Positions 25 through 64,000 of a stretch of DNA of 64,000 nucleotides are shown one piece after another (the first letter of the stretch is position 1; every line of letters begins with the position of its first letter). A program made the position numbers and the translations under genes. The stretch is from positions 160,001 through 224,000 of the forward strand of contig OZ220733.1 in the NCBI GenBank assembly GCA_965116875.1, given 5' to 3'. Below the pieces are notes generated by a model. It saw nothing but the letters and a program-made list of their open reading frames with translations, made no database searches and was not told the DNA's origin. This stretch comes from Candidatus Latescibacterota bacterium (lineage in GTDB: Bacteria; Latescibacterota; UBA2968; GCA-2709665).

Positions 25-2199
25 ATGAAAAGGTCAACGATTTTCGGGGTCACTCTTGTTTTGACCACTGTCCTGTTTTCACACGACAGCCTCGCACAGG
101 ATCATACACGCCTGGGACTGCCCCAGGGGGCCCTCATGCGCCCGGGCAAAGGAGAGTCACGCCTGTTGGCCTGGTCGCGGGACGGCAAGCGACTGGCGGT
201 TGGGGGTACGATTGGCATCTGGGTCTACGATACCGAAACCGGGGACGAGGTTTCGCTGCTCGCGGGTCATAGATCCGGAGTGGTATCGATGGTGTTTTCG
301 CCGGATGGGACGACGCTGGCAAGCGCCAGTGGCGACTATACGGTGCGGTTGTGGGACGTGGCCACGTGGCAGGAAAGAGGCACCTTGACAGGGCATACCC
401 ATCGGGTCACGTCGGTCGTGTTTTCGCCGGACGGGACGATGCTCGCAAGTACCGGAAATGACCGAACGCTACGGCTGTGGGACGTGGCCGCGGGGCAGGA
501 AATAAGCACCCTCACTGGACATACGTCCTGGGTCACTTCGGTGGTGTTTTCGCCGGATGGGACCACGCTGGCAAGCGGCAGCCGGGACGAAACGGTGCGG
601 TTATGGGACGCGGCCACTGGGCGCTACAAAAACACCCTCACAGGACACACGTCGTCGGTCACGTCCGTGGTGTTTTCGCCGGATGGAAAGACGCTGGCCA
701 GCACCAGTAGCGAACGTACGGTGCGACTGTGGGACCTGGCCACGGGGCAGGAAAAAGGCTCCGTGAAAGAACAAAACTGGTGGCCCGGATCGGTGGCGTT
801 TTCGCCGGACGGGAAGACCATGGCGAGCGGCGGTTACGACAATACGGTGCGATTGTGGGACGTGTCCACAGGTCAAGTCAATCACACGCTCACAGGACAT
901 ACGGCGACAGTCAGGTCGGTGGTGTTTTCTCAGGATGGGATGACCCTGGCCAGCGGCAGTTCGGACAATACGGTGCGGTTGTGGGACGTGGCCACAAAAA
1001 AGGAAAAAACCACCCTGACGGGACATTCGGGGACGATCAGGACGATAGCGTTTTCACCGGACGGGACAACGCTCGCAAGTGCCAGTTGGGATCATACGGC
1101 GCGGTTGTGGGACGTGGCCACGGGTCAGGAAAAGAAGACCCTGGCTGGACATTCCGGTGACGCCAGGTCGTTAGCGTTTTCGCCGGACGGGACATCGCTC
1201 GCAAGTGCCAGTGATCGTACGGTGCGGTTGTGGGATGTAGCCACGTGGCGGGTAAAACGCGCTTTCACAGGACATACCCGTGATGTCAGTTCGGTAGCGT
1301 TTTCGCCGGATGGGAACACGCTGGCAAGCGGCAGCTGGGACGGAACTGTGCGGTTGTGGGACGCGGCCACAGGGCAGGCAAGACACACCCTCACAGGACA
1401 TACCCGAGGAGTCGAGTCGGTCGCGTTTTCCCCGAACGGGTCGATGCTCGCAAGCGGCGACGGCGGGATTGGTACGGTGCGGTTGTGGGACGTGGCCTCA
1501 GGTCAGGAAAAAAGCGCCTTGTCACCACATTTCGGTACGGTCTATTCGGTAGCGTTTTCGCCGGATGGAAAAACGTTGGCAAGCGGCAGTTCGGACAATT
1601 CAGTGCGGCTGTGGGATGTCGCCTCGGGGCAGGTGGAAAACACCTTTACAGGACATACACTACATGTCCTTTCTGTCGAGTTCTCGCCGGACGGGACGAC
1701 GCTGGCGAGTGCCGGTAAAGACAATACGGTGCGATTGTGGGACGTGGTATCAGGGCAACAAGAGTTCACCCTCGCGGGACATACGGAATGGGTCTTTTCG
1801 GTGGCGTTTTCACCGGATGGAAGCACGCTGGCCAGCAGCAGCTGGGACGGTACAGTGCGGTTGTGGAACGCGGCCACGGAGCATGAAGAAGCCACCTTCA
1901 CGGCGCATACGTATTGGGTCCCGACGGTGGCGTTTTTTCCGGATGGACGCACGCTGGCCAGCGGGGGCAGCGCGATCTTATTGTGGGATGTGTCGCCGTA
2001 TGTCGCGCCTCAATCCCTTGTTGCCGACTTCGACGGCGACGGGACCGTGGGCTTCCCCGACTTCCTGCAGTTCGCGTCGCAGTTCGGTCAGAGCCGGGAC
2101 GACGCCGGATTCGACGCGCGTTTCGATCTGGACGGCGACGGCGAGGTCGGGTTCAACGACTTCGTGATCTTTGCGCGCAGCTTTGGCCGGGGGACATGA
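25..2199 (+). CDS. Secreted WD40-repeat protein with C-terminal dockerin-like (double DxDGDG Ca-loop) domain, array gene 1 (type A)
   Basis: Signal peptide ending SLA-QD; 14 GH..FSPDG..WD repeats plus a degenerate first repeat; ADFDGDGTVGFPDF..FDLDGDGEVGFNDF tail; GGAGGG RBS. Confidence 0.93.
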   Translation: MKRSTIFGVTLVLTTVLFSHDSLAQDHTRLGLPQGALMRPGKGESRLLAWSRDGKRLAVGGTIGIWVYDTETGDEVSLLAGHRSGVVSMVFSPDGTTLASASGDYTVRLWDVATWQERGTLTGHTHRVTSVVFSPDGTMLASTGNDRTLRLWDVAAGQEISTLTGHTSWVTSVVFSPDGTTLASGSRDETVRLWDAATGRYKNTLTGHTSSVTSVVFSPDGKTLASTSSERTVRLWDLATGQEKGSVKEQNWWPGSVAFSPDGKTMASGGYDNTVRLWDVSTGQVNHTLTGHTATVRSVVFSQDGMTLASGSSDNTVRLWDVATKKEKTTLTGHSGTIRTIAFSPDGTTLASASWDHTARLWDVATGQEKKTLAGHSGDARSLAFSPDGTSLASASDRTVRLWDVATWRVKRAFTGHTRDVSSVAFSPDGNTLASGSWDGTVRLWDAATGQARHTLTGHTRGVESVAFSPNGSMLASGDGGIGTVRLWDVASGQEKSALSPHFGTVYSVAFSPDGKTLASGSSDNSVRLWDVASGQVENTFTGHTLHVLSVEFSPDGTTLASAGKDNTVRLWDVVSGQQEFTLAGHTEWVFSVAFSPDGSTLASSSWDGTVRLWNAATEHEEATFTAHTYWVPTVAFFPDGRTLASGGSAILLWDVSPYVAPQSLVADFDGDGTVGFPDFLQFASQFGQSRDDAGFDARFDLDGDGEVGFNDFVIFARSFGRGT

Positions 2200-2281
2200 T
2201 GCGAACACGCCTTGTCAGATTGGTCCGCATCGGGCGATCGGATATGCAACCGGGCTGAAGCGGTCGCGGTTATGTCCATGA

Positions 2282-2388
2282 TCTGAAAGGAGGTGACTTC
2301 GGAACCCACGTTGAGAAGAGTCAGGCCGCGGTATGTTAACGTGACAAGCTATGGATCGGGGCAGGTGTCGAAATGACACGACGTGCAA
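2282..2388 (+). promoter_or_regulatory. Conserved intergenic module with (A)AAGGAGGTGA core; other copies at 4779-4826, 4895-4925 and 7292-7398
   Basis: Alignment by eye of the intergenic regions in front of array genes 2, 3 and 4. Confidence 0.6.
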
Positions 2389-2556
2389 AGGGAGCGGACG
2401 CACGTTGCGGTCGATCATTGCGCACAACGTCTCTCCATATCTGAATCACTCGCTACAGGGTAATAGAATTGCCACATCAGTCGCAGATTTTCCATGCGGC
2501 TTAAATGAAGTCGATCCGAACAAACCCAGTTTGAGATTGTCCGGGAGGATTTACAA

Positions 2557-4632
2557 TTGAAAAGGTCACAGGTATTGAGTCTCATTCTTATTACCACGGC
2601 TGTAATGATCGCCCAGAACAGCAGCGCGCAGGATTACGTTCGCTGGAATCTGCCCCAAGGGGCACTCATGCGTCTGGGTAAAGGAAACGTGCTAGACGTG
2701 GCCTGGTCGCCGGACCGCACGCTCATGGCCGTGGGCACCAGCCCTGGCATCTGGCTCTACGATGCCGAAACCGGGACGGAGATTTCCCTGATCACCGGAC
2801 ATTCGTTCAGGGTCAATGCGGTTGCGTTTTCTCCAGATGGTCTGACGCTGGCAAGTGGCAGTCGGGACAATACGGTGCGGTTGTGGGACGTGGCCACCGG
2901 AGATGAAAGGAGCATCCTCACGGGACATACCTACAATGTCGAGGCGGTAGCATTCTCGCCGGATGGGACGACGTTGGCAAGTGGCAGTCGAGACGGCACG
3001 GTGCGGGTGTGGGACGTGGAGACGGGGCAGGAAAAATACACCCTCCTGAACGAAAAGTACCGGGAGTTGCGGAACAGGCCCTGGGTCTATTCGGTCGCGT
3101 TTTCACCGGACGGTCTGACGCTGGCAAGCGCCAATCGGGACACGACGGTGCGGGTGTGGGACGTGCATACAGGGCAAGAAAAACACACGCTCACCGGACA
3201 TACGAATAGACCCATTTCGGTAGCGTTTTCGCCGGATGGAACGACGCTGGCAAGCGCCGGTCGGGACAGTACCGTGCGGTTGTGGGACGTGGAAACGGGA
3301 CAGGAAGAGAGAACCCTGAAAGGACATACCCATGTGGTGTATGCGGTGGTGTATTCGCCCGATGGATCGGAACTTGCAAGCGGCAGTCAGGACCGGACGG
3401 TCAGGTTGTGGGACGCGGCCACAGGGCAGGAGAAACACACCCTCACAGGACTTACGTCCACCGTACTGTCGGTTGTTTATTCACAGGATGGGATGACGCT
3501 GTCAACCCGCAGTTTCGACAATACGGTCCGGGCGTGGGATGTTGAAACCCAGCAGGAAACAAACACCCTCACCCTTACAGGGCATACCCAATCTGTAAAT
3601 TCTGTAGCGTTTTCGCCGAATGGGACAACCCTGGCAAGCAGCGGGAACGACCCAGGCATCCGGTTGTGGGACCCGGCTACAGGGCAGGTAAAAAGCACTT
3701 TCGCAGGAAATGGGTCGGTGGCGTTCTCGCCGGATGGGATCACGTTGGCAACCGGCGGCGGTCGGGACGGGCCGATGCGTTTGTGGGATGCGGCCACGGG
3801 GCAGGAGAAACACACCCTCTCCGGGCATACGTCGTTTGTCGAGTCGGTGGCGTTCTCGCCGGACGGGACCACACTTGCAAGTGCGGGCGGTCGGGACGAA
3901 ACGGTGCGGTTGTGGGACGTTGACGCAGGCCAGGAGAAACATACCCTCACTGGACATACGGAGACTGTCTCGTGGGTGGCGTTTTCGCCGGATGGATCGA
4001 CGCTTGCAAGCGCCAGCTACGACAATACGGTGCGGCTGTGGGATCCGGCAACCGGACAGGAGAAAAACATCCTCACAGGACATACCCATGGGCTCCATTC
4101 GGTCGTTTTTTCGCCGGATGGGCAGACACTGGCAAGCTCCGATTCCCGGGGTACGGTACGGTTGTGGGATGCGGCCACGGGGCACGAGAAAAACACCTTC
4201 TCGGCACAGGGAGAGAATTTCTTTTCCATTGCGTTCTCGCCGGATGGGACCACGCTGGCAACCAGCAGTCCGTACAGGGCGGTATGGCTGTGGGACGTGG
4301 CAACCGGACAGAATATACGCGCCCTCAGAGGACATACAGCTCCGATCTGGACGGTAGAGTTTTCACCGGACCGTAGAACGCTGGCAAGCGCCAGTTACGA
4401 CGGTACGATTCTGCTGTGGGACGTCTCGTCACGTGACGCGCTGCAACCCCTTGCCGCCGACTTCGACGGCGACGGGACCGTGGGCTTTTCCGACTTTCTG
4501 CAATTCGCCGCGAGTTTCGGGCTGAGTTGGGGAGATGCGGGATATGACGCGCGCTTCGATCTCGACGGCAACGGTGAGGTCGGGTCCCGCGATTTGTGGA
4601 TCTTCCAGAAAAGCTTCGGCCGGGGTTCATGA
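2557..4632 (+). CDS. Secreted WD40-repeat protein with dockerin-like tail, array gene 2 (type B)
   Basis: TTG start after GGAGG; signal peptide; YVRWNLPQGALMRLGKG cap; ~14 WD repeats; double DxDG loop tail. Confidence 0.93.
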   Translation: MKRSQVLSLILITTAVMIAQNSSAQDYVRWNLPQGALMRLGKGNVLDVAWSPDRTLMAVGTSPGIWLYDAETGTEISLITGHSFRVNAVAFSPDGLTLASGSRDNTVRLWDVATGDERSILTGHTYNVEAVAFSPDGTTLASGSRDGTVRVWDVETGQEKYTLLNEKYRELRNRPWVYSVAFSPDGLTLASANRDTTVRVWDVHTGQEKHTLTGHTNRPISVAFSPDGTTLASAGRDSTVRLWDVETGQEERTLKGHTHVVYAVVYSPDGSELASGSQDRTVRLWDAATGQEKHTLTGLTSTVLSVVYSQDGMTLSTRSFDNTVRAWDVETQQETNTLTLTGHTQSVNSVAFSPNGTTLASSGNDPGIRLWDPATGQVKSTFAGNGSVAFSPDGITLATGGGRDGPMRLWDAATGQEKHTLSGHTSFVESVAFSPDGTTLASAGGRDETVRLWDVDAGQEKHTLTGHTETVSWVAFSPDGSTLASASYDNTVRLWDPATGQEKNILTGHTHGLHSVVFSPDGQTLASSDSRGTVRLWDAATGHEKNTFSAQGENFFSIAFSPDGTTLATSSPYRAVWLWDVATGQNIRALRGHTAPIWTVEFSPDRRTLASASYDGTILLWDVSSRDALQPLAADFDGDGTVGFSDFLQFAASFGLSWGDAGYDARFDLDGNGEVGSRDLWIFQKSFGRGS

Positions 4633-5063
4633 AGCGAACAAACGGTGTCAAAAGCAAGTCGAGCCAGGTTTGCATTAAGGCAGGGAACCCACCCCCGTCA
4701 GGCGAGTTCCCGGCCTGAAAACTGAAGCCTTGGCAGACCTCTGTTTTGCCTTTCCATCGATCACTCAATCTGGCCACGTCTGGGAAGGGGGTAATTTCGG
4801 AACCCGCGTCGAGAAGAGTCAGTCCGTCGAACGTCTGCTTTAACGCGATGATCGCCGTCACAAGGGGTTATGCCGACCACGGATCGGATCGCGTTCTGAA
4901 AGGAGGTGATATTGGATTCCACGTCGCTAAATCTCTCGCCTTTGTACGACTATGTGAGAATCCAAGGCATTGAAGTTGCCACATCAGTCACAGATTCTCC
5001 ATGCGGCTAAATTGAAGTCAATCCGAACAAACCCAGTTCGTGATTATCAAGGAGGATTTACAA

Positions 5064-7148
5064 ATGAAAGGGTCAACGACTTTAATCACCCTCCTTCTGT
5101 TGACGGCCGTCTTGATCGCCCAGGACAGCAGCGCACAGGATTACACTCGCTGGAGTTTGCCCGAAGGGGCCCTCATGCGGTTGGGAAAAGGCTCCGTGCG
5201 TGACGTGGCCTGGTCGCCGGACCGGACGCTCCTGGCCGTGGGGGGCACCGCTGGAATCTGGCTCTACGATGCCCAAACCGGCGCGGAGATTTCCTTGATC
5301 ACAGGACATTCGTTCAGGGTCAATGCAGTTGCGTTTTCACCCGATGGTCTGACGCTGGCAAGTGGCAGTCGGGACGATACGGCGCGGTTGTGGGACGTGG
5401 AAACCGGAGAGGAAAAAGGCATCCTCACGGGACACTACTACGACGTCGAGGCAGTGGCATTCTCGCCGGATGGAACGACGCTGGCAAGCGGGAGTCGCGA
5501 CGGTACAGTGCGGGTGTGGGACGTGGCCACAGGCCAGGAAAGAAATATGCTCTTAAGTGAAAAGTACACGGAAAGGTGGCAGGCGCCCGCGGTTGTGTCG
5601 GTGGCATTCTCGCCAGATGGGAGGACGGTGGCAAGCGCCGCTGCTGACACTACGGTACGGGTGTGGGACGTGGAAGCCGGGGACGAAAAACACACCCTCA
5701 CAGGACATACGAACAGGATCTATTCGGTGGTGTTTTCGCCCGACGGAACGACCCTTGCAAGCGCCAGTCGGGACAGTACCGTGCGGTTGTGGGACGTGGA
5801 AACGGGGCAGGAAAAGACCACTCTCGCAGGACATACAAGCAGGGTCTATTCGGTCGTGTTTTCTCCCGATGGTCTGACGCTGGCAAGCGGCAGTTACGAC
5901 CATACGGTGCGGTTGTGGGACGCGGCCACAGGACAGGAAAAAGGTACCCTCACAGGACATACGTCCACTGTCCTGTCGGTTGCGTATTCGCCCGATGGTC
6001 TGACACTGGCAAGCCGCAGTTTCGACAATACGGTGCGGAAGTGGGACGTGGAAACCGTGCAGGAAAAAAGCACTTTCACCCTCAGAGGACATACCCGCCG
6101 TGTCGATTCGGTGGCGTTTTCGCCGGATGGGCGGACCCTGGCCAGCGGCCATTACGACAGTAAGGTACGGTTGTGGGACGCGGAAACCGGGCAGGAAAAA
6201 AGCACCTTGGCAGGACATACGCGCGGGGTCGCGTCGGTGGCGTTTTCGCCGGATGGTCAGACCCTGGCAAGTGGCAGTTTCGACAGTACGGTGCGGCTGT
6301 GGGACGTGACCACGGGGCACGAGGAACACACGCTTACAGGACATAATGGCACTGTAAGGGCGGTTGCGCTCACGCCAGATGGGAGGACGGTGGCGAGCGG
6401 CGGTCGGGACGAAACCGTGCGATTGTGGGACGTGACCACCGGGCACGAGAAATATACCCTCGCAGGACATACCGATGATGCCACTTCGGTGGCGTTTTCG
6501 CCAGATGGGTCGACCCTGGCAAGCGGCAGTTACGACAATACAGTGCAATTGTGGGATCCGGAAACCGGGCAACAAAAGGACACCCTCATTGGACATACCC
6601 GTGCAATTCATGGAGTGGCGTTTTCGCCCGATGGGATGACGATTGCAAGCGCCGGTAATGACGCCGCGGTGCGATTGTGGGACGCGGCCACAGGGCAGGA
6701 GAAAAACACCCTCGCAGCAGCAAGTGCCGAGAACTTCTGGTCGGTGGCGTATTCACCACATGGGACAACGCTGGTATGCGGAAGTCCGTACAAGGCAATT
6801 TGGTTGTGGGACGTGGTCACTGGACAGGATATACGCGCCCTCATAGGACACACCGATCCAGTGCGGACGGTCGTGTATTCGCCGGATGGGATGATGCTGG
6901 CAAGCGCCAGTTACGACGGTACGATTCTGCTGTGGGACGTCTCGTCACGTGACGCGCTGCAACCCCTCGCCGCGGACTTCGACGGCGACGGGACCGTGGG
7001 CTTTTCCGACTTTCTGCAATTCGCCGAAAAGTATGGTCTGAGCTGGGGAGATGCGGGATACGACACGCGCTTCGATCTGGACGGCGACGGTGAGGTCGGT
7101 TCCGCCGATTTGTGGATTTTTCAGAAGAGCTTCGGCAGGGGTAGCTGA
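5064..7148 (+). CDS. Secreted WD40-repeat protein with dockerin-like tail, array gene 3 (type B)
   Basis: ATG at 5064 after AAGGAGG, homologous to the gene 2 start; same architecture. Confidence 0.93.
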   Translation: MKGSTTLITLLLLTAVLIAQDSSAQDYTRWSLPEGALMRLGKGSVRDVAWSPDRTLLAVGGTAGIWLYDAQTGAEISLITGHSFRVNAVAFSPDGLTLASGSRDDTARLWDVETGEEKGILTGHYYDVEAVAFSPDGTTLASGSRDGTVRVWDVATGQERNMLLSEKYTERWQAPAVVSVAFSPDGRTVASAAADTTVRVWDVEAGDEKHTLTGHTNRIYSVVFSPDGTTLASASRDSTVRLWDVETGQEKTTLAGHTSRVYSVVFSPDGLTLASGSYDHTVRLWDAATGQEKGTLTGHTSTVLSVAYSPDGLTLASRSFDNTVRKWDVETVQEKSTFTLRGHTRRVDSVAFSPDGRTLASGHYDSKVRLWDAETGQEKSTLAGHTRGVASVAFSPDGQTLASGSFDSTVRLWDVTTGHEEHTLTGHNGTVRAVALTPDGRTVASGGRDETVRLWDVTTGHEKYTLAGHTDDATSVAFSPDGSTLASGSYDNTVQLWDPETGQQKDTLIGHTRAIHGVAFSPDGMTIASAGNDAAVRLWDAATGQEKNTLAAASAENFWSVAYSPHGTTLVCGSPYKAIWLWDVVTGQDIRALIGHTDPVRTVVYSPDGMMLASASYDGTILLWDVSSRDALQPLAADFDGDGTVGFSDFLQFAEKYGLSWGDAGYDTRFDLDGDGEVGSADLWIFQKSFGRGS

Positions 7149-7258
7149 CGGGAACACGCCGTGACCGAACGAGGCGGCTCCAGGTCTGCATGATTGCCGG
7201 GAACCCACCGTTCGTGAAGGGTCCCAACTCGCCAGTGGTACCATGGCGGATATCTGTA

Positions 7259-7287
7259 TTGACATTCTATCGATCTCCTAATATGAC
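7259..7287 (+). promoter_or_regulatory. Possible sigma70-type promoter (TTGACA-N17-TATGAC) just upstream of the conserved module
   Basis: Perfect -35 box, weak -10 box, 17-nt spacer. Confidence 0.35.
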
Positions 7288-7492
7288 GGCGTCTGAGAAG
7301 GAGGTGATAACAGGAATCCACATCGCGAAAAGTCAGGCCGCTGTATGTTTACGTGAGAGGCAATGGATCGGGACAGGTGCTGAAATAACACGTTGCACTG
7401 GGTGAGCGGGAGGGCAATGCCGCCTTGCGACGTCTACAAGGTCTCTCGATGCGGTTTAATCAGAGTTAATCATAGTAAGGGAGGGCATTCAG

Positions 7493-9580
7493 ATGAAAAA
7501 GCTCGCGATTTTGAGCCTCATTCTTGTTTCGACGATTGTCTTGCCGGCACAGAACAGCAACGCGCAGGATTACCTTCGTTGGCGCTTGCCAGAAGGCGCA
7601 CGCATGCGTCTGGGCAAGGGAAACGTACTTGACGTGGCCTGGTCGCCGGACCGCACGCGCCTGGCCACGGGGGGCACCGCCGGCATCTGGCTCTACGATG
7701 CCCACGCCGGCACGGAGATTTCCCTGATCACCGGCCATGCGTTCAGGGTGAATGCGGTTGCGTTTTCACCCGATGGTCTGACGCTGGCAAGTGGCAGTCG
7801 CGACGATACCGTGCGGTTGTGGGACGTGGAAACGGGACAGGAAAAAAGCATCCTCACGGGTCACAGGTACGACGTCGAGGCGGTGGCATTCTCGCCGGAT
7901 GGGACGACCCTGGCAAGCGGCAGTCGCGATGGCACGGTGCGAGTGTGGGACGTGGAAACCGGGCAGGAACATCACAGGCTAATCAACGAAAAGTACACGG
8001 ATAGGTTTAGTAACCCCTGGGTCGTGTCGGTGGCGTTTTCGCCGGATGGAGCGACGCTGGCCAGCGCCAGCCGGGACAGTACCGTACGGGTGTGGGACGT
8101 GGCCACCGGGGAGGAAAAGCACACGCTCACGGGACATACACATGGGGTCTGGTCGGTGGCATTTTCGCCGGACGGAATGACGTTGGCCAGTGGAAGTCGG
8201 GACAACACGGTGCGGTTGTGGGACGTGGAAACGGGACAGAAAAAGTTCACCATGGACGGGCATACCCATTGGGTGTATTCGGTCGTGTTTTCGCCCGATG
8301 GATCGACGCTGGCCAGCGCCAGTCGGGACAGTACCGTGCGGGTGTGGGACGTGGAAACCGGACAGGAGAAACACACACTCACAGGGCATGAGTCCAGAGT
8401 CCAGTCGGTTGCGTATTCGCAGGACGGGATGACCCTGGCGAGCCGCGGTGTCGACAATACGGTGCGACAGTGGGACGTGGGAACCGGGCTGGAGAAGGGC
8501 ACCCTCAGACTTACAGGGCATACCTCCGCCGTCGGTTCGGTTGCATATTCGCCGGACGGAACGATACTGGCAAGCGGCGGTAGCGACCGCATGGTCCGGT
8601 TGTGGGACGCGTCCACAGGGCAGGAATTGAACACCCTCACAGGACATACGCGGTTTGTCAATTCGGTGGCGTTTTCGCCGGATGGGTTGACGCTGGCAAG
8701 CGCTGGCAGCTATCGGGACGATACGGTGCGGTTGTGGGATGCGGCCACCGGGCACGAGAAAAACACCCTCATAGGACATACGGGCAGTGTCGAGTCGGTG
8801 GCGTTCTCGCCGGATGGCAAGACGCTGGCAAGCGCCGGCGGCTATCGGGACAGTACGGTGCGGGTGTGGGACGCGTCCACAGGGCAGGATATACGCACCC
8901 TCACAGCACATACCGGAAGGGTCGAGTCGGTGGTTTTTTCGCCGGACGGGTTGACGCTCGCAAGCGCCGGAAACGACTCTACGGTGCGGTTGTGGGATGT
9001 GGCCACAGGGAACGAGAAACACACCCTCACAGCAACTACCTATAGGATCCATGAGGTGGTGTTTTCGCCGGATGGGACGACGCTGGCAAGCGCAGGTATT
9101 GACGGTACGGTTCAGTTTTGGGACGTGAACACAGGGCAGGACATACGCACCCTCACTGGCGATAATTTCCGTTCGTTGGCGTATTCGCCGGATGGGATGA
9201 CGCTGGCAACCGGCAGTGCGCACAAGGCGGTATGGCTGTGGGACGTGGCCACAGGGCAGAATGTACGCGCCCTCACGGGACATACCGATCCGATCAATTC
9301 GGTGGTGTTCTCTCCGGATGGGAGAACGCTTGCAAGCGCCGGTTACGACGGTACGATCCTGCTATGGGACGTCTCGTCACGTGACGCGCTGCAACCCCTC
9401 GCCGCCGACTTCGATGGTGACGGAACCGTGGGCTTTACCGACTTTCTGCAATTTGCCGCGAAGTACGGGCTGCGCTGGGGAGATGCGGGATATGACGCGC
9501 GTTTCGACCTTGACGGCGATGGGGAGGTCGGGTCCTGGGATTGGAGGATCTTCGGCCAAAGCTTCGGCCGGGGTAACTGA
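7493..9580 (+). CDS. Secreted WD40-repeat protein with dockerin-like tail, array gene 4 (type B)
   Basis: Same architecture; shares the TILLWDVSSRDALQPLAADFDGDG junction with genes 2 and 3. Confidence 0.93.
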   Translation: MKKLAILSLILVSTIVLPAQNSNAQDYLRWRLPEGARMRLGKGNVLDVAWSPDRTRLATGGTAGIWLYDAHAGTEISLITGHAFRVNAVAFSPDGLTLASGSRDDTVRLWDVETGQEKSILTGHRYDVEAVAFSPDGTTLASGSRDGTVRVWDVETGQEHHRLINEKYTDRFSNPWVVSVAFSPDGATLASASRDSTVRVWDVATGEEKHTLTGHTHGVWSVAFSPDGMTLASGSRDNTVRLWDVETGQKKFTMDGHTHWVYSVVFSPDGSTLASASRDSTVRVWDVETGQEKHTLTGHESRVQSVAYSQDGMTLASRGVDNTVRQWDVGTGLEKGTLRLTGHTSAVGSVAYSPDGTILASGGSDRMVRLWDASTGQELNTLTGHTRFVNSVAFSPDGLTLASAGSYRDDTVRLWDAATGHEKNTLIGHTGSVESVAFSPDGKTLASAGGYRDSTVRVWDASTGQDIRTLTAHTGRVESVVFSPDGLTLASAGNDSTVRLWDVATGNEKHTLTATTYRIHEVVFSPDGTTLASAGIDGTVQFWDVNTGQDIRTLTGDNFRSLAYSPDGMTLATGSAHKAVWLWDVATGQNVRALTGHTDPINSVVFSPDGRTLASAGYDGTILLWDVSSRDALQPLAADFDGDGTVGFTDFLQFAAKYGLRWGDAGYDARFDLDGDGEVGSWDWRIFGQSFGRGN

Positions 9581-9744
9581 TGGCAACACGCCGTGTCGGT
9601 GTCCGGTTGCTCCAACTTTCTCCACGAATCCATCGCTCGGTGCAGGTCGTCGACATACTGGAATCAATCACTGTCTTTTCGTGCCATTAAATCCTGGTTC
9701 ATCCCTCGTAGTCAAAGTTTATCATAGTCAGGGAGGGCATTCAG

Positions 9745-11796
9745 ATGAAAAGGTCAACGATTTTGGGCGTCACTCTAGTTTTGACGACTGTCCTGTTTTC
9801 ACACGACAGCCTCGCACAGGATCACACACGAATGGGACTGCCCCAGGGGGCACTAAAGCGGCTGCGCAAAGGAGAATCACGCCTGGTGGCCTGGACGCGG
9901 GACGGCGCGCGACTGGCGGTGGGCGGTACCATTGGCATCTGGGTTTACGATACCGAAACCGGGGACGAGGTTTCTCTGCTCGCGGGTCATAGACGTGAAG
10001 TGGTATCGATGGAGTTTACGCCCGATGGCCTGACGCTTGCGAGCGGCAGTCTTGACCATACGGTGCGTTTGTGGGACGCGGCCACGTGGCAGGAAAAAAG
10101 CACCCTGAAAGGACACACCCGCGGGGTCAATTCGGTAGCATTTTCGCCGGATGGGACCACGCTGGCGAGCGGCAGTCGCGACGGCACGGTGCGGGTGTGG
10201 GACGTGGCCACCGGGCAGGAAATACACGCTCTTACGGGACATACCCGTGATGTCAATTCGGTAGTGTTTTCGCCGGACGGGACAACGCTGGCAAGCGCCA
10301 GCCGGGACGAAACGGTGCGGTTGTGGGACACGGCCACAGGGAATTAGAAAAACACCCTCACCGGACATACGTCGTCTGTCACGTCCGTGGTGTTTTCGCC
10401 GGATGGGAAGACGCTGGCTGGCACCAGTAGTGATCGTACATTGAGATTGTGGGAAGTGTCCTCCGGCGAAGAGAAAGGCGCCGTAACAGAACAAAACTGG
10501 TGGCCCGGATCGGTGGCGTTTTCGCCGGACGGGAAGACTATGGCGAGCGGCGGGTACGACAATATGGTGCGATTGTGGGACGTGGCGACAGGGCTAGTCA
10601 ATCACACTCTCACAGGACATACGGCGACCGTCAGGTCGGTATTGTTTTCGCAGGATGGGATGACCCTGGCCAGCGGAAGTTCGGACAATACGGTGCGGTT
10701 GTGGGACATGACCACCCAAATTGAAAAAAACACCCTAACGGGACATTCGGGGACGATCAGGACGATTGCTTTTTCGCCGGACGGAACATCGCTGGCAAGC
10801 GCCAGTTGGGATCATACGGCGCGTTTGTGGGACGTGGCCACGGGACAGGTAAAGAGCACCCTCACGGGACATTCCGGGTCTACCAGGTCGGTGGCGTTTT
10901 CACCGGATGGGGCGACGCTTGCAAGCGGCAGCTGGGACGGAACTGTGCGGTTGTGGGACGCGGCCACAGGGCAGGCAAGACACACCCTCACAGGACATAC
11001 CCGAGGAGTCGAGTCGGTGGCGTTTTCCCCGGACGGGTCGATGCTCGCAAGCGGCGACGGCGGGATTGGTACGGTGCGGTTGTGGGACGTGGCCTCAGGT
11101 CAGGAAAAAAGCGCCTTGTCACCACATTTCGGTACGGTCTATTCGGTAGCGTTTTCGCCGGATGGAAAGACGTTGGCAAGCGGCAGTTCGGACAATTCAG
11201 TGCGGCTGTGGGATGTCGCCTCGGGGCAGGTGGAAAACACCTTTACAGGACATACACTACATGTCCTTTCTGTCGAGTTCTCGCCGGACGGGACGACGCT
11301 GGCGAGTGCCGGTAAAGACAATACGGTGCGATTGTGGGACGTGGTATCAGGGCAACAAGAGTTCACCCTCGCGGGACATACGGAATGGGTTTACTCCGTG
11401 GTGTTTTCACCGGATGGAACCATGCTGGCCAGCAGCAGTTCGGATGGTACGGTGCGGTTGTGGAACGCGGCCTCGGGGCAGGAAGAGGCCACCTTCACAG
11501 CGCATACGTATTGGGTCCCGTCGGTGGCGTTTTCGCCGGACGGAAGGAAACTGGCCAGCGGAGGCAGCGCGATCCTATTATGGGATATGTCGCCCTTTGT
11601 CGATCCGCAACCCCTTGCTACCGACTTCGACGGCGACGGCGCCGTGGGCTTCCCCGACTTCCTGCAGTTCGCGTCGCAGTTCGGGCAGAGCCGGGACGAC
11701 GCCGGATTTGACGCGCGTTTCGACCTGGACGGCGACGGTGAAGTCGGGTTCAACGATTTTGTGATCTTCGCTCGCAGCTTCGGCAATGGTACGTGA
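9745..11796 (+). pseudogene. WD40-dockerin array gene 5 (type A), interrupted by one in-frame TAG at 10345-10347
   Basis: ORFs 9745..10347 and 10387..11796 share a frame and are colinear with gene 1; the TAG aligns with TAC (Tyr) of gene 1. Confidence 0.8.
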
Positions 11797-24342: not shown

Positions 24343-24440
24343 TGGCGGGAATGTGTGGGAATCGAACCCACCCAGCGTGTGATTAGCACGCCGCAACGGG
24401 TTTGAAGCCCGCGAGGGCCACCAGTGCCCCATCCACTCCC
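24343..24440 (-). tRNA. selC: tRNA-Sec (anticodon UCA)
   Basis: 98 nt; GGGAGTG/CATTCCC acceptor stem + GCCA; CTTCAAA anticodon loop; long variable arm; GTGGG-TTCGATT-CCCAC T arm; adjacent to selB. Confidence 0.96.
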
Positions 24441-24478
24441 GCACAATGTCGGTCGACTGGATCCGTTGACCTGACCCT

Positions 24479-26380
24479 TTATCGACTCGCCAACACCCGG
24501 ACGTCCCCCTTTCTCAAGGTGACGCCCCTGTTATCGAAATAGTTCAACAATGGAACGGCGTATTTGCGCGTGGTGCCCACCAGGTCGCGGAATGCCGAAA
24601 CACTCATCTCCCGGTTTCGCCGCAGGTAATCGACGAGCTCCTGCTCAATCTCCTCGAGCGTACGCGGCGGAAACACCAGATGCTCGTCGAGCCTCACGAT
24701 CTCTCCCATCGCCTGCATGGCGGCCGAAACAGCGTGAACTTCGGCGGAGTCCCGCGCCAGGTGAACCCCCATCTCGTTCAGATCCGGAGGGGCGGACCGT
24801 CCAGCCTTCAGAAGCGCCAGCATTTCCTCTCTGATCCGGCCCTGGTCTCCTGAGAACTGGATCCGGTGATCGGCCAGACGCAGGAGGGGACCCGAGGATA
24901 TCAACCCCTTCTCCGAGAGCAGATGGTCGATTGCCCGCTCGAATGTACTGTCCGGCGGCCTTCCCTCCACCAGCCGGTGGAGTTCGCTGTGCGAAACCCC
25001 CGCCTTGAGGGGATGGGTCCGGTGATAGATGGACAGCGCATCCCGAACGTGTTGCAGCAGCGACTGCCACGAATCCGTATGAACGTATACGGCCTTTCCC
25101 GCGTGGCGAAAGACGAATGCCTCTCCCCTGTCCTGCAGGTCCTGCAGCCGGTCGTCTGTCTCGGACAGAGACAACCCCAGCGCCGCCGCAAGATCAGAGG
25201 CCGACTGGGCCCGGTATCCCGCCGCCTTCAGACGAAGGCCCAACACGCGGGTCGGATCCTCAACTTCGGACGCGCGCAGCGGTTCGAGCGTGTCCTCCCG
25301 AAAGCGGCGATGCTTGGCCGGCTGCGCATCCAGCACCACCCCTCCGCCCAGCGTTTGCACGGGCGAATAACGTCGGATCACGAATCGGTCGCCCCGGGCC
25401 GCCACGCCGCGCTCTTCCAGGCGGAACTGCACCAGCTGGGATTCGCCGGGGTGCAACTCGTCCCCCTCGAGGAGAACCACGCGCGCCAGTACGTCTCTCG
25501 GTCCAAGGTGCAGATGCACCCGCGCCCGGTTCTCCAGTGACACCGGCGCATCCTTCAGCAGACGCAGCCGTGCGTCCAGCATATAGGTGGAACTGAAATA
25601 CCCCCGCTGCGCCAGAAGATCTCCCCGCGCGACCTGATCCACCTCCACGTCGGCCAGGTTGATCGCCGCCCGGTGACCAACGACGGCTGTCTCCACGTCC
25701 CTGCCGTGTACCTGCACGCCACGCACCCGAACGGCATGGTTGGCCGGCTGCAGCATCACCACGTCCTTCGGCCGAACCCGGCCCGACAGTACGGTGCCCG
25801 TTACAACCGTACCGAATCCCCTGACGGAGAATACACGATCCACCGGAAGACGAAACACGCCGCCATCGGGGCGCGTCTCCGCATTCCCGATTTCTTCCTC
25901 CAGCAGCGCCCCCAGCGTCTCCATCCCCTCGCCGGTCACCGCGGACACCGGTACGATCGGAGCGCCCTCCAGAAACGTGCCTTCGAACAGGTCGCGCAGG
26001 TCCTCCTCCACCAGGTCCGCCCAGTCCGGCTCCACCAGGTCCACCTTGTTCAGCGCCACAACACCCCGCCGTACGCCCAGAAGATTCAGAATACCCAGGT
26101 GCTCACGCGTCTGGGGCATGGCCCCGTCGTCCGCCGCCACCACAAACAGGGCGAGATCCACCGAACACACGCCGGTCACCATATTCTTCACGAACCGTTC
26201 GTGACCGGGCACGTCGATGATCGTGACATCGTCCTTCCAGTACGCGAATCCGATATCGATTGTCACGCCCCGGTCCTTCTCCTGCGGGAGCGTATCCGTA
26301 TCGATACCCGTAAGCGCCTTGATCAACGCGGTCTTTCCATGGTCGATATGACCCGCCGTACCGATAATCACGTGCGACAT
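24479..26380 (-). CDS. selB: Selenocysteine-specific elongation factor
   Basis: [20 protein letters not shown]-terminal [10 protein letters not shown] winged helix. Confidence 0.96.
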
Positions 26381-27804
26381 CAGGTTGACTCCGCACCGAT
26401 CCCCGCCGCGCGCCGCAGCGCGTCCTCGACGAGGCGCAACTCACCGGAAGCCACCGTCCGCAGGTCCAGAAACAGCCGCTCGTCCCGCACGTATCCGACG
26501 ACCGGCGGATCGTTGGAGCGCAGCCTGGCCGCGAGGTCGGTCACGGACCCATCGTTGACGAAAGACACACAGAGCGCCGCGCTTGCGATTTCCTCCAGGG
26601 GCATGGCGCCGCTGCCCGTCTGCGCAACCGAATCCACCAGGTCAACCCGCAGCCCGCAGTCCTGCAGCTGACTCAGCCGGGCCAGACTCCGCCTTCCCCG
26701 CCGCATCAGAGCGGTAACAGGCTCAGTGAGCATCCCCAGCGTTGGATGCGCCCGCAGCAGATCCTTCCGGTTCAGGAAGAGCCTCAACGTTGCCGCCAGT
26801 GCGGCGTACGTGAGCTTCCCGCACCGCAGCGCCCGCATGAGCGGGTTCCGCCGGATTTTCCGGATGGCGTCTTCCCTCCCCACCAGAATGCCCGCCTGGG
26901 GTCCGCCCAACACCTTGTCGGCGCTGAACGTGACCACGTCGGCGCCGGCCGCGACGCTGTCCGACACCAGGGGCTCGTGCGGCAGACCGAACTCACCCAT
27001 ATCCACCAGCGCCCCGCCTCCGAGGTCGTGGACCACGGTCACACCGCGCCGATTGCCCAGCGCAACCAATTCCGGGAGTGAAACCGCGGCTGTAAAGCCC
27101 ATCACCTTGTAGTTGCTCGGGTGTACCGCCAGCATCAGACCGGCGCGGTCGGTCAGCGCGGCCTCATAGTCCCGCAGGTGCGTCCGGTTGGTTGTACCCA
27201 CCTCTACGAGTACCGCGCCGCTTCGCTCCATGATTTCCGGAATGCGAAAAGAATCACCGATCTCGATCAATTCGCCTCGCGAGACCAGCGCTTCTTTTCC
27301 AAGACAAAGCGTATTCAGGGTCAACAATACGGCCGCCGCGTTGTTGTTGACCACAGCCGCCGCTTCCGCGCCCGTCAACGCACACAACAGTTCCTCAACC
27401 AGCGCCGTTCGGGACCCGCGCCGGCCGGATTCAAGGTCTGACTCCAGATTGCTGTACCCGGAGGCAATTCCCGCGACCGCACGGGCGGCGGCATCCGACA
27501 GCGGCGCGCGCCCGAGGTTCGTGTGCAACACGATTCCGGTGGCGTTGACGACCCGCTTGAGGCCGGGTTCGGTCAAACGCGCCACCCGCAGACAGACCCG
27601 GCGGGTTACACGCGCCAGGAGCGTATTCCGGGATTCGCCGGTCGCCTCACCGCTGAGTATGGACTGCCGAACGGCGACGATTTCCTCGCGCACAAAACGC
27701 GCAACCAGCGGCTGATTGCAGCATTCACACAACGCGCGAACCCCAGGTTCAGCCATTACCGAGTCAACCGAAGGAATCACCGACAAGTTGGCCTGCTCTG
27801 CCAT
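26380..27804 (-). CDS. selA: L-seryl-tRNA(Sec) selenium transferase
   Basis: NATGIVLHTNLGRA, VNNNAAA, EVGTTNRT, FSADKVLGGPQAG; ATG at 27804 after GGGAG. Confidence 0.96.
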   Translation of the reverse strand: MAEQANLSVIPSVDSVMAEPGVRALCECCNQPLVARFVREEIVAVRQSILSGEATGESRNTLLARVTRRVCLRVARLTEPGLKRVVNATGIVLHTNLGRAPLSDAAARAVAGIASGYSNLESDLESGRRGSRTALVEELLCALTGAEAAAVVNNNAAAVLLTLNTLCLGKEALVSRGELIEIGDSFRIPEIMERSGAVLVEVGTTNRTHLRDYEAALTDRAGLMLAVHPSNYKVMGFTAAVSLPELVALGNRRGVTVVHDLGGGALVDMGEFGLPHEPLVSDSVAAGADVVTFSADKVLGGPQAGILVGREDAIRKIRRNPLMRALRCGKLTYAALAATLRLFLNRKDLLRAHPTLGMLTEPVTALMRRGRRSLARLSQLQDCGLRVDLVDSVAQTGSGAMPLEEIASAALCVSFVNDGSVTDLAARLRSNDPPVVGYVRDERLFLDLRTVASGELRLVEDALRRAAGIGAEST

Positions 27805-27853
27805 GATGCTCCCGATAGCGGACGCCATTGACGACGCGCGGCGCGGTCTGCCT

Positions 27854-30067
27854 TTACGGAACGATTCTGAATGAAATCTCCTTCGAAACCTGCTCATCCG
27901 CCATCAGGTCCGATACGGCCACCCTGACCAGCTGCCTGCCTTCCTGCGTTCCGGTCAGATCCAGCTCCACGTACGCCACTTCATCCGGCCGGTTTCCGGC
28001 CTGGTCGTATGCGATCACAATCTCCTGGTCCTTTTCGGACAGCCTGAATACCCGTCCCAGACCGTGCAGGATCTTCGCGGGCAGCGCCCGGTCCCGATGC
28101 GACCGCAACGTGTATTCCACACGATAGCGCGTCTGACCGAAGGCATCCTGTTTCAGATTGTAGATTTCAAAATAGACAAACGCGTTCTGGTGGCTCCGGA
28201 ACGCCAGCGACGACATCGGGATCACCTTGAGGCCGTTCTTTATGTAATCTCCGGCCGTTTCTTCCGTCGGCTCCGTCGCGAAGGCGAGTTCGATATCGCT
28301 GATCAGCAGCCCGGTAGGCTTGTGATAGTCCTCCAGGACAACCGCCTGCTGATAGACCTGGGACTTTCCGGAAACCACGTCCCGTACCTGGAGGGCCATC
28401 TGGTACGTGCCGGGAGGAAGATTCACGGGCATTACGCCAGGAATGAACGCGCCGTCGGAAACCTCCTGGTCCGTGGGGGCCGTGAAGGCCATCTGATCCA
28501 CCTCACGATAGACTTCGTTCCACAGGCTGTCGAACAACGCAACGCCCCGGTCCAGCAGAATGAGACCCGCTTTCTCATCCACGTTCAATCGTACCACCTC
28601 GGATGCAGGCAACCCGTAGTAGATCTCCAGTCGCGTCCTGGATTCCTGCCCCTTGAAATCCGCCGGATAGTAGTAAAAGTCGATGGGCAGATCGGCGAAG
28701 TCGGGCGAATAGCGTGAGGGCCGACTCGCCACGACATTCTGCATGATCACACCACCCTGATAATCGGCCAGGTGGACGCCGACGTGCGGTGCAACCGTGA
28801 GCGGAAACGGCGCGAAGTCGTACCGCCGGCCTTTGAAGACTTCGGTGAACGTGATCTCGATACCGCCGTCTACCTGTGTGTAGATCCAGTATTCCCACCT
28901 CGCGTTCGCGGCAACCGGAAAGATCGGAAGCCCCGGTGAAATGGCCAGCGCGATCCGGGAACGGTTCACGAAATTTACTCGCGTTTCCTGTAGTTCCCGG
29001 TCCCGTTCGGCCTGAACGTCGTCCCATCTGCTGATATGGTCCGGATTTCCCAGCCGGATGAATACCTCGCCACGTTTGTCCCAGCCGCCGTCCGGCCGGG
29101 TATAATATTCGAGCGCGTATGCCACACGCCGATAGTGCTCCAGCAACCGTTCGTTTTCGGGCGTGAGGGGTGTGGGGTCGCGCCGGTTCCAGAACCGCGC
29201 GGCAAGCGCATCTTTTTCCGCCGGCAACGCCGCTTCGTAGCGCGCCAGGTCGTCGTCGTCCGCCACGAGGGATATGTCGCGATACCTGCGTTGTTCGGCT
29301 TTCGGAAGTAAGGAGAAATAGACCCCGAACAGTTCGTTCGCACGCTCGAAGTCCCGATTCATCAGGGCAATAACGGCAAGATCGCGATGGGCCGGAATAC
29401 GGGCGTCGCCGCCGGCCGTCAGCAACCCAGAGAGCATGTTGACCGCTTCCCCGGTCCTCCCCAGAGAGAGCCACAGCCGTGCCAGCCGGATTCCTGCGCG
29501 GGGGTGTGCCGGATTCGCCTCCATCTCCTGCCGGTATGCTGAAATCGCCTCGTGCAGCTTTCCGTCGTCCTCCAGCAGCAGTCCAATCCGGAAATGCGCG
29601 TCCGGGTAACCGGCGTCGATCTCAATCACTCTCTCGAATGCTTCCCGCGCCCGTCGCTTCCGCGTTTCCAGGTAGACGCACGCCAGATGGTACTGCGCCT
29701 CGGCCATGTCCGGGTCTGCTCTCAGGGCTCGTTTGAAATTCGATTCGGCCTGCCTGTACCCCTTCTCTGAAGCCATGTAGGCCAGTCCCAACCCGTTGTA
29801 CCCCGCCGCCTTTGCGCCCTTCTTCACCGCCTTCCTGAACGCCTTTCTGGCTGCCTTCTGATTGCCGGCATCCAGATACGCATGTCCGAGAAGAACAAAA
29901 TCCCTCGCCGTCTCCTTTCCCGCAGCGATCACACGCTTCAGCGCGGCAACGGCGCGTTCCGACCGACCACCCTCGACGTCCTCCTGCGCCACAACCCGGA
30001 GTGAATCAGCCGGCGTCGCCGGTACGGGCGCAACGATCGTGAGGGACAGGGCGATTATCCAAGTCAT
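27854..30067 (-). CDS. Secreted TPR + GWxTD-domain protein
   Basis: Signal peptide; TPRs; FWNRRDPTPLTPENE..EHYRRVAYA..GWDKRGEVFIRLGNPD. Confidence 0.85.
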   Translation of the reverse strand: MTWIIALSLTIVAPVPATPADSLRVVAQEDVEGGRSERAVAALKRVIAAGKETARDFVLLGHAYLDAGNQKAARKAFRKAVKKGAKAAGYNGLGLAYMASEKGYRQAESNFKRALRADPDMAEAQYHLACVYLETRKRRAREAFERVIEIDAGYPDAHFRIGLLLEDDGKLHEAISAYRQEMEANPAHPRAGIRLARLWLSLGRTGEAVNMLSGLLTAGGDARIPAHRDLAVIALMNRDFERANELFGVYFSLLPKAEQRRYRDISLVADDDDLARYEAALPAEKDALAARFWNRRDPTPLTPENERLLEHYRRVAYALEYYTRPDGGWDKRGEVFIRLGNPDHISRWDDVQAERDRELQETRVNFVNRSRIALAISPGLPIFPVAANARWEYWIYTQVDGGIEITFTEVFKGRRYDFAPFPLTVAPHVGVHLADYQGGVIMQNVVASRPSRYSPDFADLPIDFYYYPADFKGQESRTRLEIYYGLPASEVVRLNVDEKAGLILLDRGVALFDSLWNEVYREVDQMAFTAPTDQEVSDGAFIPGVMPVNLPPGTYQMALQVRDVVSGKSQVYQQAVVLEDYHKPTGLLISDIELAFATEPTEETAGDYIKNGLKVIPMSSLAFRSHQNAFVYFEIYNLKQDAFGQTRYRVEYTLRSHRDRALPAKILHGLGRVFRLSEKDQEIVIAYDQAGNRPDEVAYVELDLTGTQEGRQLVRVAVSDLMADEQVSKEISFRIVP

Positions 30068-62580: not shown

Positions 62581-63921
62581 TTACCTCTTGCCGCCTTGCC
62601 CCAGCCTGCGCCATCCCTGAAGTATTGACGGGATCATCTGTTCGGGTTGTCCGGCCTTACGGAAGACGGCCCACATGACGTCCCAGACCTGCGGATTCCA
62701 CTGGCACAGATCGATCCAGTCCGCGCACGGCGTACTATCCCCTTCCTTTGAATCCACGCGCCCGCCAATCACGGGATTATCCACCGACCCGTTCCACATC
62801 TGTTCCAACAGGGTATGCCCGAACCGCTTCATATCGGCGTTGTTGAATACGACGCCACTCCGGCACGCATCGACTGCAAATCCGACGTCGATTCGCCCGT
62901 GGCTGGTATCTTCAATGGCGCTGTGCCCGTGTACGCCGCCTTCGTTCCAGTCCCAGTAGTACCAGGTATACGCCCGGCCTGTTTTCCACAGGTGCCGCTT
63001 GTAATTTTTCGCCATCCGCTGCGCCCGGTCCGCGAACAGGCGTTTCCGCGATACGCTCTGCAAACACAGGTACGCCCGACCCAGCGCGAGATACTGATTG
63101 TGCGGCATAATCCGGTTCGGAAACCGTTCCGTCATCCACGGAGAAAACCGGTATCCGCCTGAGGAAGGGGACGCGTCCACCCAGTCACGTTCGTGCTTGT
63201 CCGCGATCTGCTTTCCGATAAAGCGAAGATACGTCCGGGCGCTGGTTCCAAATCCGGCCTTGAGCCGGTCATTCTTCAGGACGTGCTCGACAAACCTGCT
63301 CACGGGATGCAGGAACATCCCCTGGTGGACGATATATTCCAGCGGCTCACCCGCGAAAACCTGCACCCAGAACCGGTCACCGGCGCGCACAGCGCCATCG
63401 ATGCGTATCTTGAACGGAGCAAAACCGTTCAGCGCGGCGCCTGACCGAAATCGGCCGCCGGCCAACTCCTTCCGTGTACCATACTCCTGGACGACGTACC
63501 GGCGTCCGGGGAGGACCTCCACGACTCGAATGCAATTCTTCGCCATGTCGCCGCCTCGGATCACCCACACCCGATCCTCTCCAGGTGTAATCCGGGCCGT
63601 TCCCCGGTTGTGCATCGATCCCGTTCTCACCAGCGCCACCGAATAGGTCGGTGTAACCCAGGTCGGATGACCGTCGGCAAAGTGGTCCCGGCTTGTTCCG
63701 ATCATCCTGTCGAAATGGTTTACGATCTTCTCCAGCCACTCCTCGTCTCCGGTTGATTCGTACAATTTCACGTACGCATCCAGGAAACCGCTTTCGCCCC
63801 ATCCCAGGCTCCCGGAGTCCGGTACGTCGGCCTGTCCCCGGCCCCGATTATGCGACCGGTCATAGCCGGCGAACCTCTCGACCATTTCCTCGAGATCAAA
63901 TGGCGCTTCGCGCGTGTTCAC
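62581..63921 (-). CDS. Hypothetical protein, possibly (alpha/alpha)6 glycosidase-like
   Basis: Long ORF; LYESTGDEEWL helix motif; GTG after GGAGG; the fold call is tentative. Confidence 0.65.
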   Translation of the reverse strand: MNTREAPFDLEEMVERFAGYDRSHNRGRGQADVPDSGSLGWGESGFLDAYVKLYESTGDEEWLEKIVNHFDRMIGTSRDHFADGHPTWVTPTYSVALVRTGSMHNRGTARITPGEDRVWVIRGGDMAKNCIRVVEVLPGRRYVVQEYGTRKELAGGRFRSGAALNGFAPFKIRIDGAVRAGDRFWVQVFAGEPLEYIVHQGMFLHPVSRFVEHVLKNDRLKAGFGTSARTYLRFIGKQIADKHERDWVDASPSSGGYRFSPWMTERFPNRIMPHNQYLALGRAYLCLQSVSRKRLFADRAQRMAKNYKRHLWKTGRAYTWYYWDWNEGGVHGHSAIEDTSHGRIDVGFAVDACRSGVVFNNADMKRFGHTLLEQMWNGSVDNPVIGGRVDSKEGDSTPCADWIDLCQWNPQVWDVMWAVFRKAGQPEQMIPSILQGWRRLGQGGKR

Positions 63922-64000
63922 GGATGCCTCCACTATGTACGGGCGCCCACAAGGGACGCCCCTACACGGTAAGGGGCGAATAATTCGCTATATAGCAGGA

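Follow-up and report, generated by a model that had tools for sequence, protein, structure and literature searches.

Several described systems share parts with the locus analysed here, a tandem array of WD40-repeat genes with dockerin-like C-terminal modules in a Candidatus Latescibacterota bacterium. The window, the whole stretch examined, comprises 64,000 nucleotides (positions 160001-224000 of contig OZ220733.1, assembly GCA_965116875.1; the genome, 97.7% complete, is designated G000). In Ca. Stygibacter (Cloacimonadota), signal-peptide proteins with C-terminal dockerins form a cellulosome-like complex with non-cellulose, mostly enzymatic cargo on one large tandem-cohesin scaffoldin, and a cohesin protein ending in a sorting domain is the proposed surface anchor (PMC8542988; this and the other papers cited are drawn on in excerpt). 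The 'planctosome' of freshwater Planctomycetes is a non-cellulosomal cohesin-dockerin assembly proposed to degrade peptides, with a single-cohesin, lamin-tail anchor and dockerin-plus-cohesin adaptors (PMC6461901). As for the propellers, the fungal NWD proteins HET-D and HET-E show four variable positions in many distinct combinations, mapping to the top face; HET-E has a NACHT domain, repeats up to 100% identical via concerted evolution and strong positive selection (PMC1805685). Repetitive prokaryotic WD40 proteins are multi-propeller and moderately repetitive, variable hot-spot sites are general among them, and their neighbours or fusion partners include kinases and caspases (PMC5587647). 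Sponge symbionts encode abundant WD40 and other eukaryote-like repeat proteins whose export route is called unresolved, and in Poribacteria the WD40 proteins themselves carry a Por-secretion tail (PMC3909097, PMC8163846, PMC12993501). Both the exit route and the targets of such proteins in sponge-associated bacteria have been described as largely unknown (PMC8163846). Finally, the type IX system of protein secretion (T9SS) transports folded proteins and requires a C-terminal domain (PMC9251779).

The window contains the downstream end of a tandem array of 11 genes (genome positions 145283-171796), six of which lie upstream of the window and five inside; window genes 1-5 are genes 7-11 of the full array (Table 1). 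A preliminary description of the window had reported five co-oriented paralogs, and all five were found where it placed them; its five-gene array was right about orientation and too short by six genes. As read in the assembly, nine genes are intact, gene 6, directly upstream of the window, is frameshifted by a 5-base insertion, and gene 11 is split by an in-frame stop codon. Gene 7 and a paralog in the congener G008 have sense codons at the latter position, and gene 11 is probably a pseudogene. Trees of 46 intact genes separated two subfamilies, A (22 genes) and B (24 genes), with support of 100/99-100 in each of three regions (N-terminal, C-terminal and dockerin); within each subfamily, tree partners shifted between the regions. 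The stop-containing gene 11 was left out of these trees and placed as A-like by its 84% DNA identity to gene 7, which completes the A-B-B-B-A order proposed earlier. Genes 7 and 11 also share a near-identical tract with exact runs of 98, 136 and 221 bases, and their other 126-base windows are 71-93% alike (excluding the blade missing from gene 11); the tract probably arose by gene conversion. Gene 10 and the frameshifted gene 6 have 90% DNA identity and a 146-base exact run in common. The sequences shared by genes 7/11 and by genes 6/10 are consistent with conversion or recent duplication. The closest named homologs of gene 10 (70-85% identity, full length) belong to Ca. Latescibacterota and, in some cases, to Gemmatimonadota.

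The array site is flanked by a DapA-family gene plus an unannotated gene on one side and a spoU/oxidoreductase/creatininase/M81 block on the other. We compared it in 14 genomes, which represent different species of one genus rather than strains. The number of copies at the syntenic site ranged from 0 to 11, with 11 in G000, G007 and G013, 9 in G010, 6 in G008 and G012, 2 in G002, G005 and G009, 1 in G011 and G014, and at least 1 in G004, where the contig ends. G006 was not located at the array site, and the downstream flank of G013 differs. The locus is therefore neither invariant nor one-to-one orthologous, whereas an invariant, one-to-one locus would have spoken against the diversifying system proposed earlier; the other result named as refuting it, the lack of both a cohesin partner and a dockerin fold, did not occur either. 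In the congener arrays, genes are often broken or have lost blades in frame, and several paralog lineages are retained across species, each with its own top-face residues. Overall, the array is best read as a birth-and-death family, with gain, loss, pseudogenes, blade loss and conversion tracts. At its downstream edge, seven genomes with 0-2 array genes have a protein with half a dockerin at the C-terminal end (G004 is contig-cut); it was not seen at the site in G000, G007, G008, G010, G012 or G011. In G013, an ORF resembling a transposase by eye lies right behind a truncated array gene.

According to Pfam scans, WD40 scored far above its cut-off in the array proteins of the window. We counted 14 blades per window gene and 15 in gene 7, as reported before, and found no catalytic family among the best 25 Pfam matches shown per protein, in agreement with the earlier claim that these proteins lack a catalytic domain. 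All 11 array proteins begin with a charged and then hydrophobic segment that ends ahead of a conserved QD; by this hydropathy heuristic, the Sec-type signal peptides suggested earlier appear sound. A GGAGG-type ribosome site precedes each of the five window genes. The repeats, by contrast to their description as highly regular, are only moderately alike, with a mean amino-acid identity of 51-65% within a gene and a within-gene DNA identity of at most 83%. A single-sequence model reached a predicted local distance difference test score (pLDDT) of 51; an alignment-based model of gene 10 (43 sequences) with a pLDDT of 88.7 and a predicted template-modelling score (pTM) of 0.80 was used instead. 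Structural alignment of this model placed a first 7-bladed propeller at residues 18-315 and showed the second to be closed by the N-terminal strand (Z ~48, root-mean-square deviation ~1 Å), as expected if 14 repeats form two 7-bladed propellers. Because of this closure, the LPxGAxxRxxKG sequence, first described as a separate cap, is predicted to be the closing strand of the second propeller. The best Foldseek match of the model was the repetitive propeller 2YMU (47% identity); fold searches covered the propellers only, and the general protein homolog search was dominated by generic WD40 proteins.

The C-terminal module had been described as a constant double calcium-loop anchor, with Dockerin_1 as the proposed check. 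Searched with this model, the last 60 residues of the five window proteins scored 18.5-25.1 bits, placing three modules above the cut-off of 22.9 and two below. A profile built from 61 modules ranked the dockerins 2Y3N_B (E 1.4e-13), 4WI0_B and 4U3S_B above calmodulin among PDB entries, and 2Y3N_B aligned ungapped with positions 2-59. With the module as a single-sequence query, a PDB search gave 336 matches, of which the best 60 were all calmodulins. The module shares with the three dockerins, which we take to be type II, a pair of calcium loops with a helix after each one, and their spacing. D1, D12 and the loop residues are conserved in both repeats, and the dockerin spacing is kept. What sets the module apart from these structures is a Phe that occupies position 10 in each repeat of 90% of the non-array versions, a symmetry that subfamily B has lost. 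In the subfamily B dockerins the second repeat is divergent, and F10 and F13, both kept in ~90% of non-array modules, are gone; a constant anchor is thus not supported. The gene 10 model has three helices in this module, at low confidence. Together, these data indicate a dockerin-like, type II-like module predicted to bind calcium. By sequence and model, the intact array proteins each consist of a signal peptide followed by two 7-bladed WD40 propellers, with a type II-like dockerin at the end.

The module is also not specific to the array. A genome-built dockerin profile detected 110 proteins in G000, with one module each, at most 20 residues from the C-terminus in 61 of them. The domains accompanying it were scanned in 90 of the 99 non-array carriers (nine WD40-type proteins were left out). 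Most annotated carriers have repeat or adhesion domains, including leucine-rich (LRR), fibronectin III, cadherin, LDL-receptor and FG-GAP repeats; others are peptidases (S8, M4, M8, M10), heparinase-like proteins or glycoside hydrolases (GH), the last with four matches (GH5, GH12 twice, GH113). The notion of a non-catalytic system is consequently not supported beyond the array, since the same dockerin occurs on enzymes.

The genome search recommended earlier did reveal candidate partners. Pfam Cohesin gave 3 matches above cut-off in G000, and an iterated profile found 17 cohesin-like domains in 17 different proteins. All are single, contrary to the scaffold that had been envisaged; the iterated hidden Markov model (HMM) search, which more distant cohesins could escape, found no multi-cohesin scaffold. 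Five small proteins combine a signal peptide, a cohesin and a T9SS tail, and one large protein a dockerin, a cohesin and a T9SS tail; the tail model TIGR04183 scored above cut-off in all six. Ten further proteins have the cohesin-like domain 13-22 residues ahead of a dockerin, and one carries it alone. The ten dockerin-preceding domains may be true cohesins that enable chains, or supports of the kind known as X-modules. The anchor-type cohesin profile had its best PDB match, a weak one, in the ScaB cohesin (E 0.0011), and a single-sequence PDB search with the cohesin gave no match. Cohesin-tail proteins occurred in all 31 relatives searched. In the phylum, 121 genomes were compared: where at least two dockerin matches occurred (100 genomes), 98 also had a cohesin match, and of the 21 with one dockerin match or none, a single genome did. 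SprA was found in G000. All 7 genomes examined have PorU-like and PorV genes; type B T9SS tails gave no score above cut-off. Matches to the PorV family in G000 number 11, and the PorU-like gene and the best PorV match (Table 1) lie near the 774-800 kb stretch, where dockerin genes cluster and a cohesin-tail gene is found. A second tandem set, of four genes, joins the dockerin to a sulfatase-modifying-factor-like (FGE) domain.

The propellers had been proposed to be variable, and we located the variation on their top face. Across 458 unique 42-residue blades from nine genomes, entropy was 3.1-3.6 bits at positions 15, 16, 18, 34 and 36, the next highest value being 2.9. Positions 16, 18, 34 and 36 flank a conserved Val and Asp just as HET-E codons 7, 9, 25 and 27 flank codons 8 and 26. 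The 92 blades of G000 carry 76 distinct four-residue combinations, rich in R, Y, S and W. Between intact G000 paralogs, identity at the variable positions is 6-16% in subfamily A and 19-58% in subfamily B, versus 66-83% at other positions. Subfamily A is variable throughout; subfamily B has, next to its variable face, a near-invariant patch in blades 2-3 (R61, N63, R79, D103, E105, R121 and G123 in mature gene 10 numbering). The top face evolves at three to five times the rate of the scaffold, whose ratio of nonsynonymous to synonymous substitution rates (dN/dS) of 0.28-0.30 indicates that the array genes are under purifying selection. These patterns suggest adaptive diversification of the top face. 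The marks of a diversity-generating retroelement target were not found: no reverse transcriptase (PF00078) was matched in G000, and changes at the hot codons involve all base pairs rather than favouring adenine.

We consider it moderately probable that the array encodes non-catalytic binders, docked onto single-socket, T9SS-anchored cohesins, and that the family evolves by birth and death. The array proteins would be exported by Sec, as their signal peptides suggest, and would fold into two 7-bladed propellers followed by a dockerin that, by analogy with its family, binds calcium. The dockerin would then plug into one of the few single-cohesin proteins with a T9SS tail. Each socket would display one binder, drawn from a pool of ~110 dockerin proteins, at the surface and without a multi-cohesin scaffold. 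New specificities may arise through tandem duplication, loss, exchange of paralog segments at matching blades and rapid change at four to five top-face residues per blade; the most likely ligands would be extracellular proteins or glycans, from a host or from neighbours.

Several observations weigh against these binders being docked and diversifying. The site is empty in G001 and G003, and several congeners have only broken genes, which indicates that the array is dispensable. The nearest cohesin gene lies ~360 kb from the array, with none in or beside it. Secretin was found in 0 of 7 genomes examined, and only 1 of the 110 dockerin proteins has a T9SS tail; that the WD40 proteins have no detectable export signal of their own is a gap in the display model. 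The generic model EF-hand_1 scores the window modules as high as or above Dockerin_1, and the module pLDDT is only ~60-76. The co-occurrence of cohesins and dockerins comes from few independent, related lineages, and the profiles, built from this lineage, are less sensitive with distance. Nor were WD40 repeats enriched when sponge genomes were compared with seawater ones (PMC8163846). The same gap in export is the basis of a bolder version, which we put forward only tentatively, as a lesser possibility: the dockerin may be a secretion-and-display tag acting in trans, whereby cargo with no outer-membrane signal of its own is picked up in the periplasm by a small cohesin-T9SS-tail adaptor and exits via SprA. 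About 110 proteins would then share six adaptors, and the array would encode adaptively diversifying, two-faced binders, with a variable face beside a fixed patch. No precedent for such T9SS piggyback export was present among the matches listed in our literature search or in the excerpted text of PMC9251779.

Whether the variation is adaptive at all bears on a rival that we regard as unlikely, in which the array serves one redundant function, copies drift by unequal crossover between similar neighbours and the top-face residues are unconstrained loop positions. Counted on 168 close blade pairs, dN/dS at the five variable positions, which were picked after the fact, was 1.09 (bootstrap 0.84-1.38). 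In likelihood analyses at the four HET-E positions, subfamily A gave 1.9 with a shared synonymous rate and 1.2 (p 0.07) or 0.54 with a free rate, and subfamily B gave 0.7-1.0. A grid method assigned positive selection at P>0.9 to just 2 of 50 sites in A and 2 of 44 in B. The codon methods were our own implementation and handled recombination partly. A ratio near 1, in a result that depends on the model, is what drift predicts, as are frequent pseudogenes, the empty site in two genomes and the generality of hot-spot variability in repetitive WD40 proteins (PMC5587647). Against drift stand the excess over the scaffold synonymous rate in subfamily A when that rate is shared, the bias of hot-site residues towards R, Y and W, the persistence of several paralog lineages across species, each retaining its own top-face residues, and purifying selection at 18 of 44 hot sites in subfamily B, among them the near-invariant patch of blades 2-3.

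A less probable alternative accepts a dockerin-like module and leaves the proteins untethered: periplasmic, released in vesicles or on lysis, or with a module that only binds calcium or self-associates. The excess of 110 dockerins over six T9SS-tailed cohesins, the missing secretin, the tail-less cargo and the loss of F10 and F13 from the B-type second repeat would fit this reading; the presence of cohesin-tail proteins in every relative searched, co-occurring with dockerins, counts against it, and cargo such as cadherin, fibronectin III, LRR, heparinase-like and peptidase domains would make most sense extracellularly. Least probable of all is a HET-E-like non-self or phage recognition system, with concerted repeat shuffling, an arms race and a defence trigger. 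The preliminary description had invoked such sensors, and the variable positions do match the HET-E codons (PMC1805685). Its mechanism was not supported: none of the 92 G000 blades (0/92) is closest in DNA to a blade of its own gene, so that within-gene homogenisation is not seen, and positive selection is not robust. Nor do the array proteins, which are predicted to be exported, contain an NTPase or effector domain; the genome has no reverse transcriptase, and the flanking genes scanned are housekeeping or metabolic.

Between the genes, a perfect complement of the 16S rRNA tail recurs (Table 1), also at genome positions 150240, 152751 and 157294, ~170-290 bases ahead of several array genes and followed by a conserved stretch. 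Six of the 15 genome-wide matches to the exact motif fall inside the 26-kb array, and the motif recurs in seven congeners. A leader peptide after it was rejected, as reading frames and starts are not conserved. Rfam gave no match in the array or its upstream part, and promoter-like matches were mostly repeat-derived and inside genes. The long ORFs listed in Table 1 as lacking a Pfam match at 1e-10 include the conserved gene immediately upstream of the array.

Table 1. Features of the array and its surroundings, with predicted domain content. Positions are those of the window unless another handle precedes them.
Feature	Position	Strand
Gene 7 of 11 (window gene 1): intact subfamily A member with signal peptide, 15 WD40 blades and a dockerin (~2023-2190)	25-2199	+
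Gene 8 of 11 (window gene 2): intact subfamily B member starting with TTG; signal peptide, 14 blades and a dockerin whose second repeat is divergent	2557-4632	+
Gene 9 of 11 (window gene 3), subfamily B, ATG at 5064 after GGAGG: 14 blades, dockerin; intact	5064-7148	+
Gene 10 of 11 (window gene 4), subfamily B: modelled as two 7-bladed propellers and a three-helix C-terminal module	7493-9580	+
Gene 11 of 11 (window gene 5), A-like: 14 blades, dockerin, one in-frame stop	9745-11796	+
In-frame TAG splitting gene 11	10345-10347	+
Near-identical tract in gene 7 (partner 10921-11390)	1324-1793	+
Near-identical tract in gene 11 (partner 1324-1793)	10921-11390	+
Intergenic motif, perfect 16S-tail complement, ~270 bases before gene 8	2287-2297	+
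Intergenic motif, 16S-tail complement, before gene 9	4900-4910	+
Intergenic motif, 16S-tail complement, before gene 10	7298-7308	+
Selenocysteine machinery (tRNA-Sec, SelB, SelA)	24347-27897	-
Additional 600-aa WD40 protein without dockerin	47273-49075	-
Long ORFs without Pfam match at 1e-10	59012-61546, 62581-63933	-
Long ORF without Pfam match at 1e-10	L017:2516-3418	
Half-dockerin protein at downstream site edge	L197:2970-4187, L198:3185-4462, L200:5190-6371, L201:916-2175, L094, L090, L092	
Transposase-resembling ORF, G013	L088 ~10400-11480	
PorU-like gene	G000:C1 806352-807434	
Best PorV match	G000:C1 757327-758274	
Second tandem set (dockerin plus FGE-like domain)	L040:1-4530	

The locus offers a concrete, testable export route, from dockerin to cohesin to T9SS tail. 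It also provides, in 47 intact paralogs sharing one scaffold, a natural series of differing, predicted binding faces; a laboratory strain can produce all the parts even though the organism itself is uncultured. If the dockerin does act as a display tag in trans, it would give eukaryote-like proteins a way out of symbionts where classical secretion systems are missing. A literature search, thin on subscription journals, found no paper that combines the features of this array and its docking system. An older single-cell study, which did not surface in our searches, reportedly proposed cellulosome parts for Latescibacteria.

The individual ingredients are already known, namely non-cellulosomal cohesin-dockerin assemblies, WD40-rich sponge symbionts and top-face variation (PMC8542988, PMC6461901, PMC3909097, PMC8163846, PMC12993501). 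The array shares with Ca. Stygibacter its signal-peptide proteins with C-terminal dockerins, a cohesin protein with a sorting tail and cargo not directed at cellulose; it differs in that every cohesin found is single, in place of a tandem-cohesin scaffoldin, and a copy-variable, non-catalytic WD40 array in place of mostly enzyme cargo (PMC8542988). The planctosome has the same single-cohesin anchors and dockerin-plus-cohesin adaptors, whereas T9SS tails and WD40 repeats do not appear in the text describing it (PMC6461901). The four variable positions and their many combinations recall HET-D and HET-E, yet the array lacks the NACHT domain and the near-identical repeats of HET-E, and strong positive selection like that of HET-E is not robustly seen in it (PMC1805685). 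It resembles the repetitive prokaryotic WD40 proteins in its multiple propellers, moderate repetitiveness and variable hot spots; the terms 'signal peptide' and 'tandem' are absent from that text, which names kinase- and caspase-type associations (PMC5587647). Unlike the tailed WD40 proteins of Poribacteria, those described here bear a dockerin, and the tail sits on a separate cohesin protein (PMC3909097, PMC8163846, PMC12993501). With no multi-cohesin scaffoldin found and plant-wall hydrolases not the main cargo among the carriers scanned, the system does not qualify as a cellulosome; a cohesin with a surface sorting signal in the same genome would make it a putative non-cellulosomal cohesin-dockerin surface system. 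Overall, the array resembles a cellulosome-type display with single sockets, yet by membership it stands outside both the cellulosomes and the HET-E sensors.

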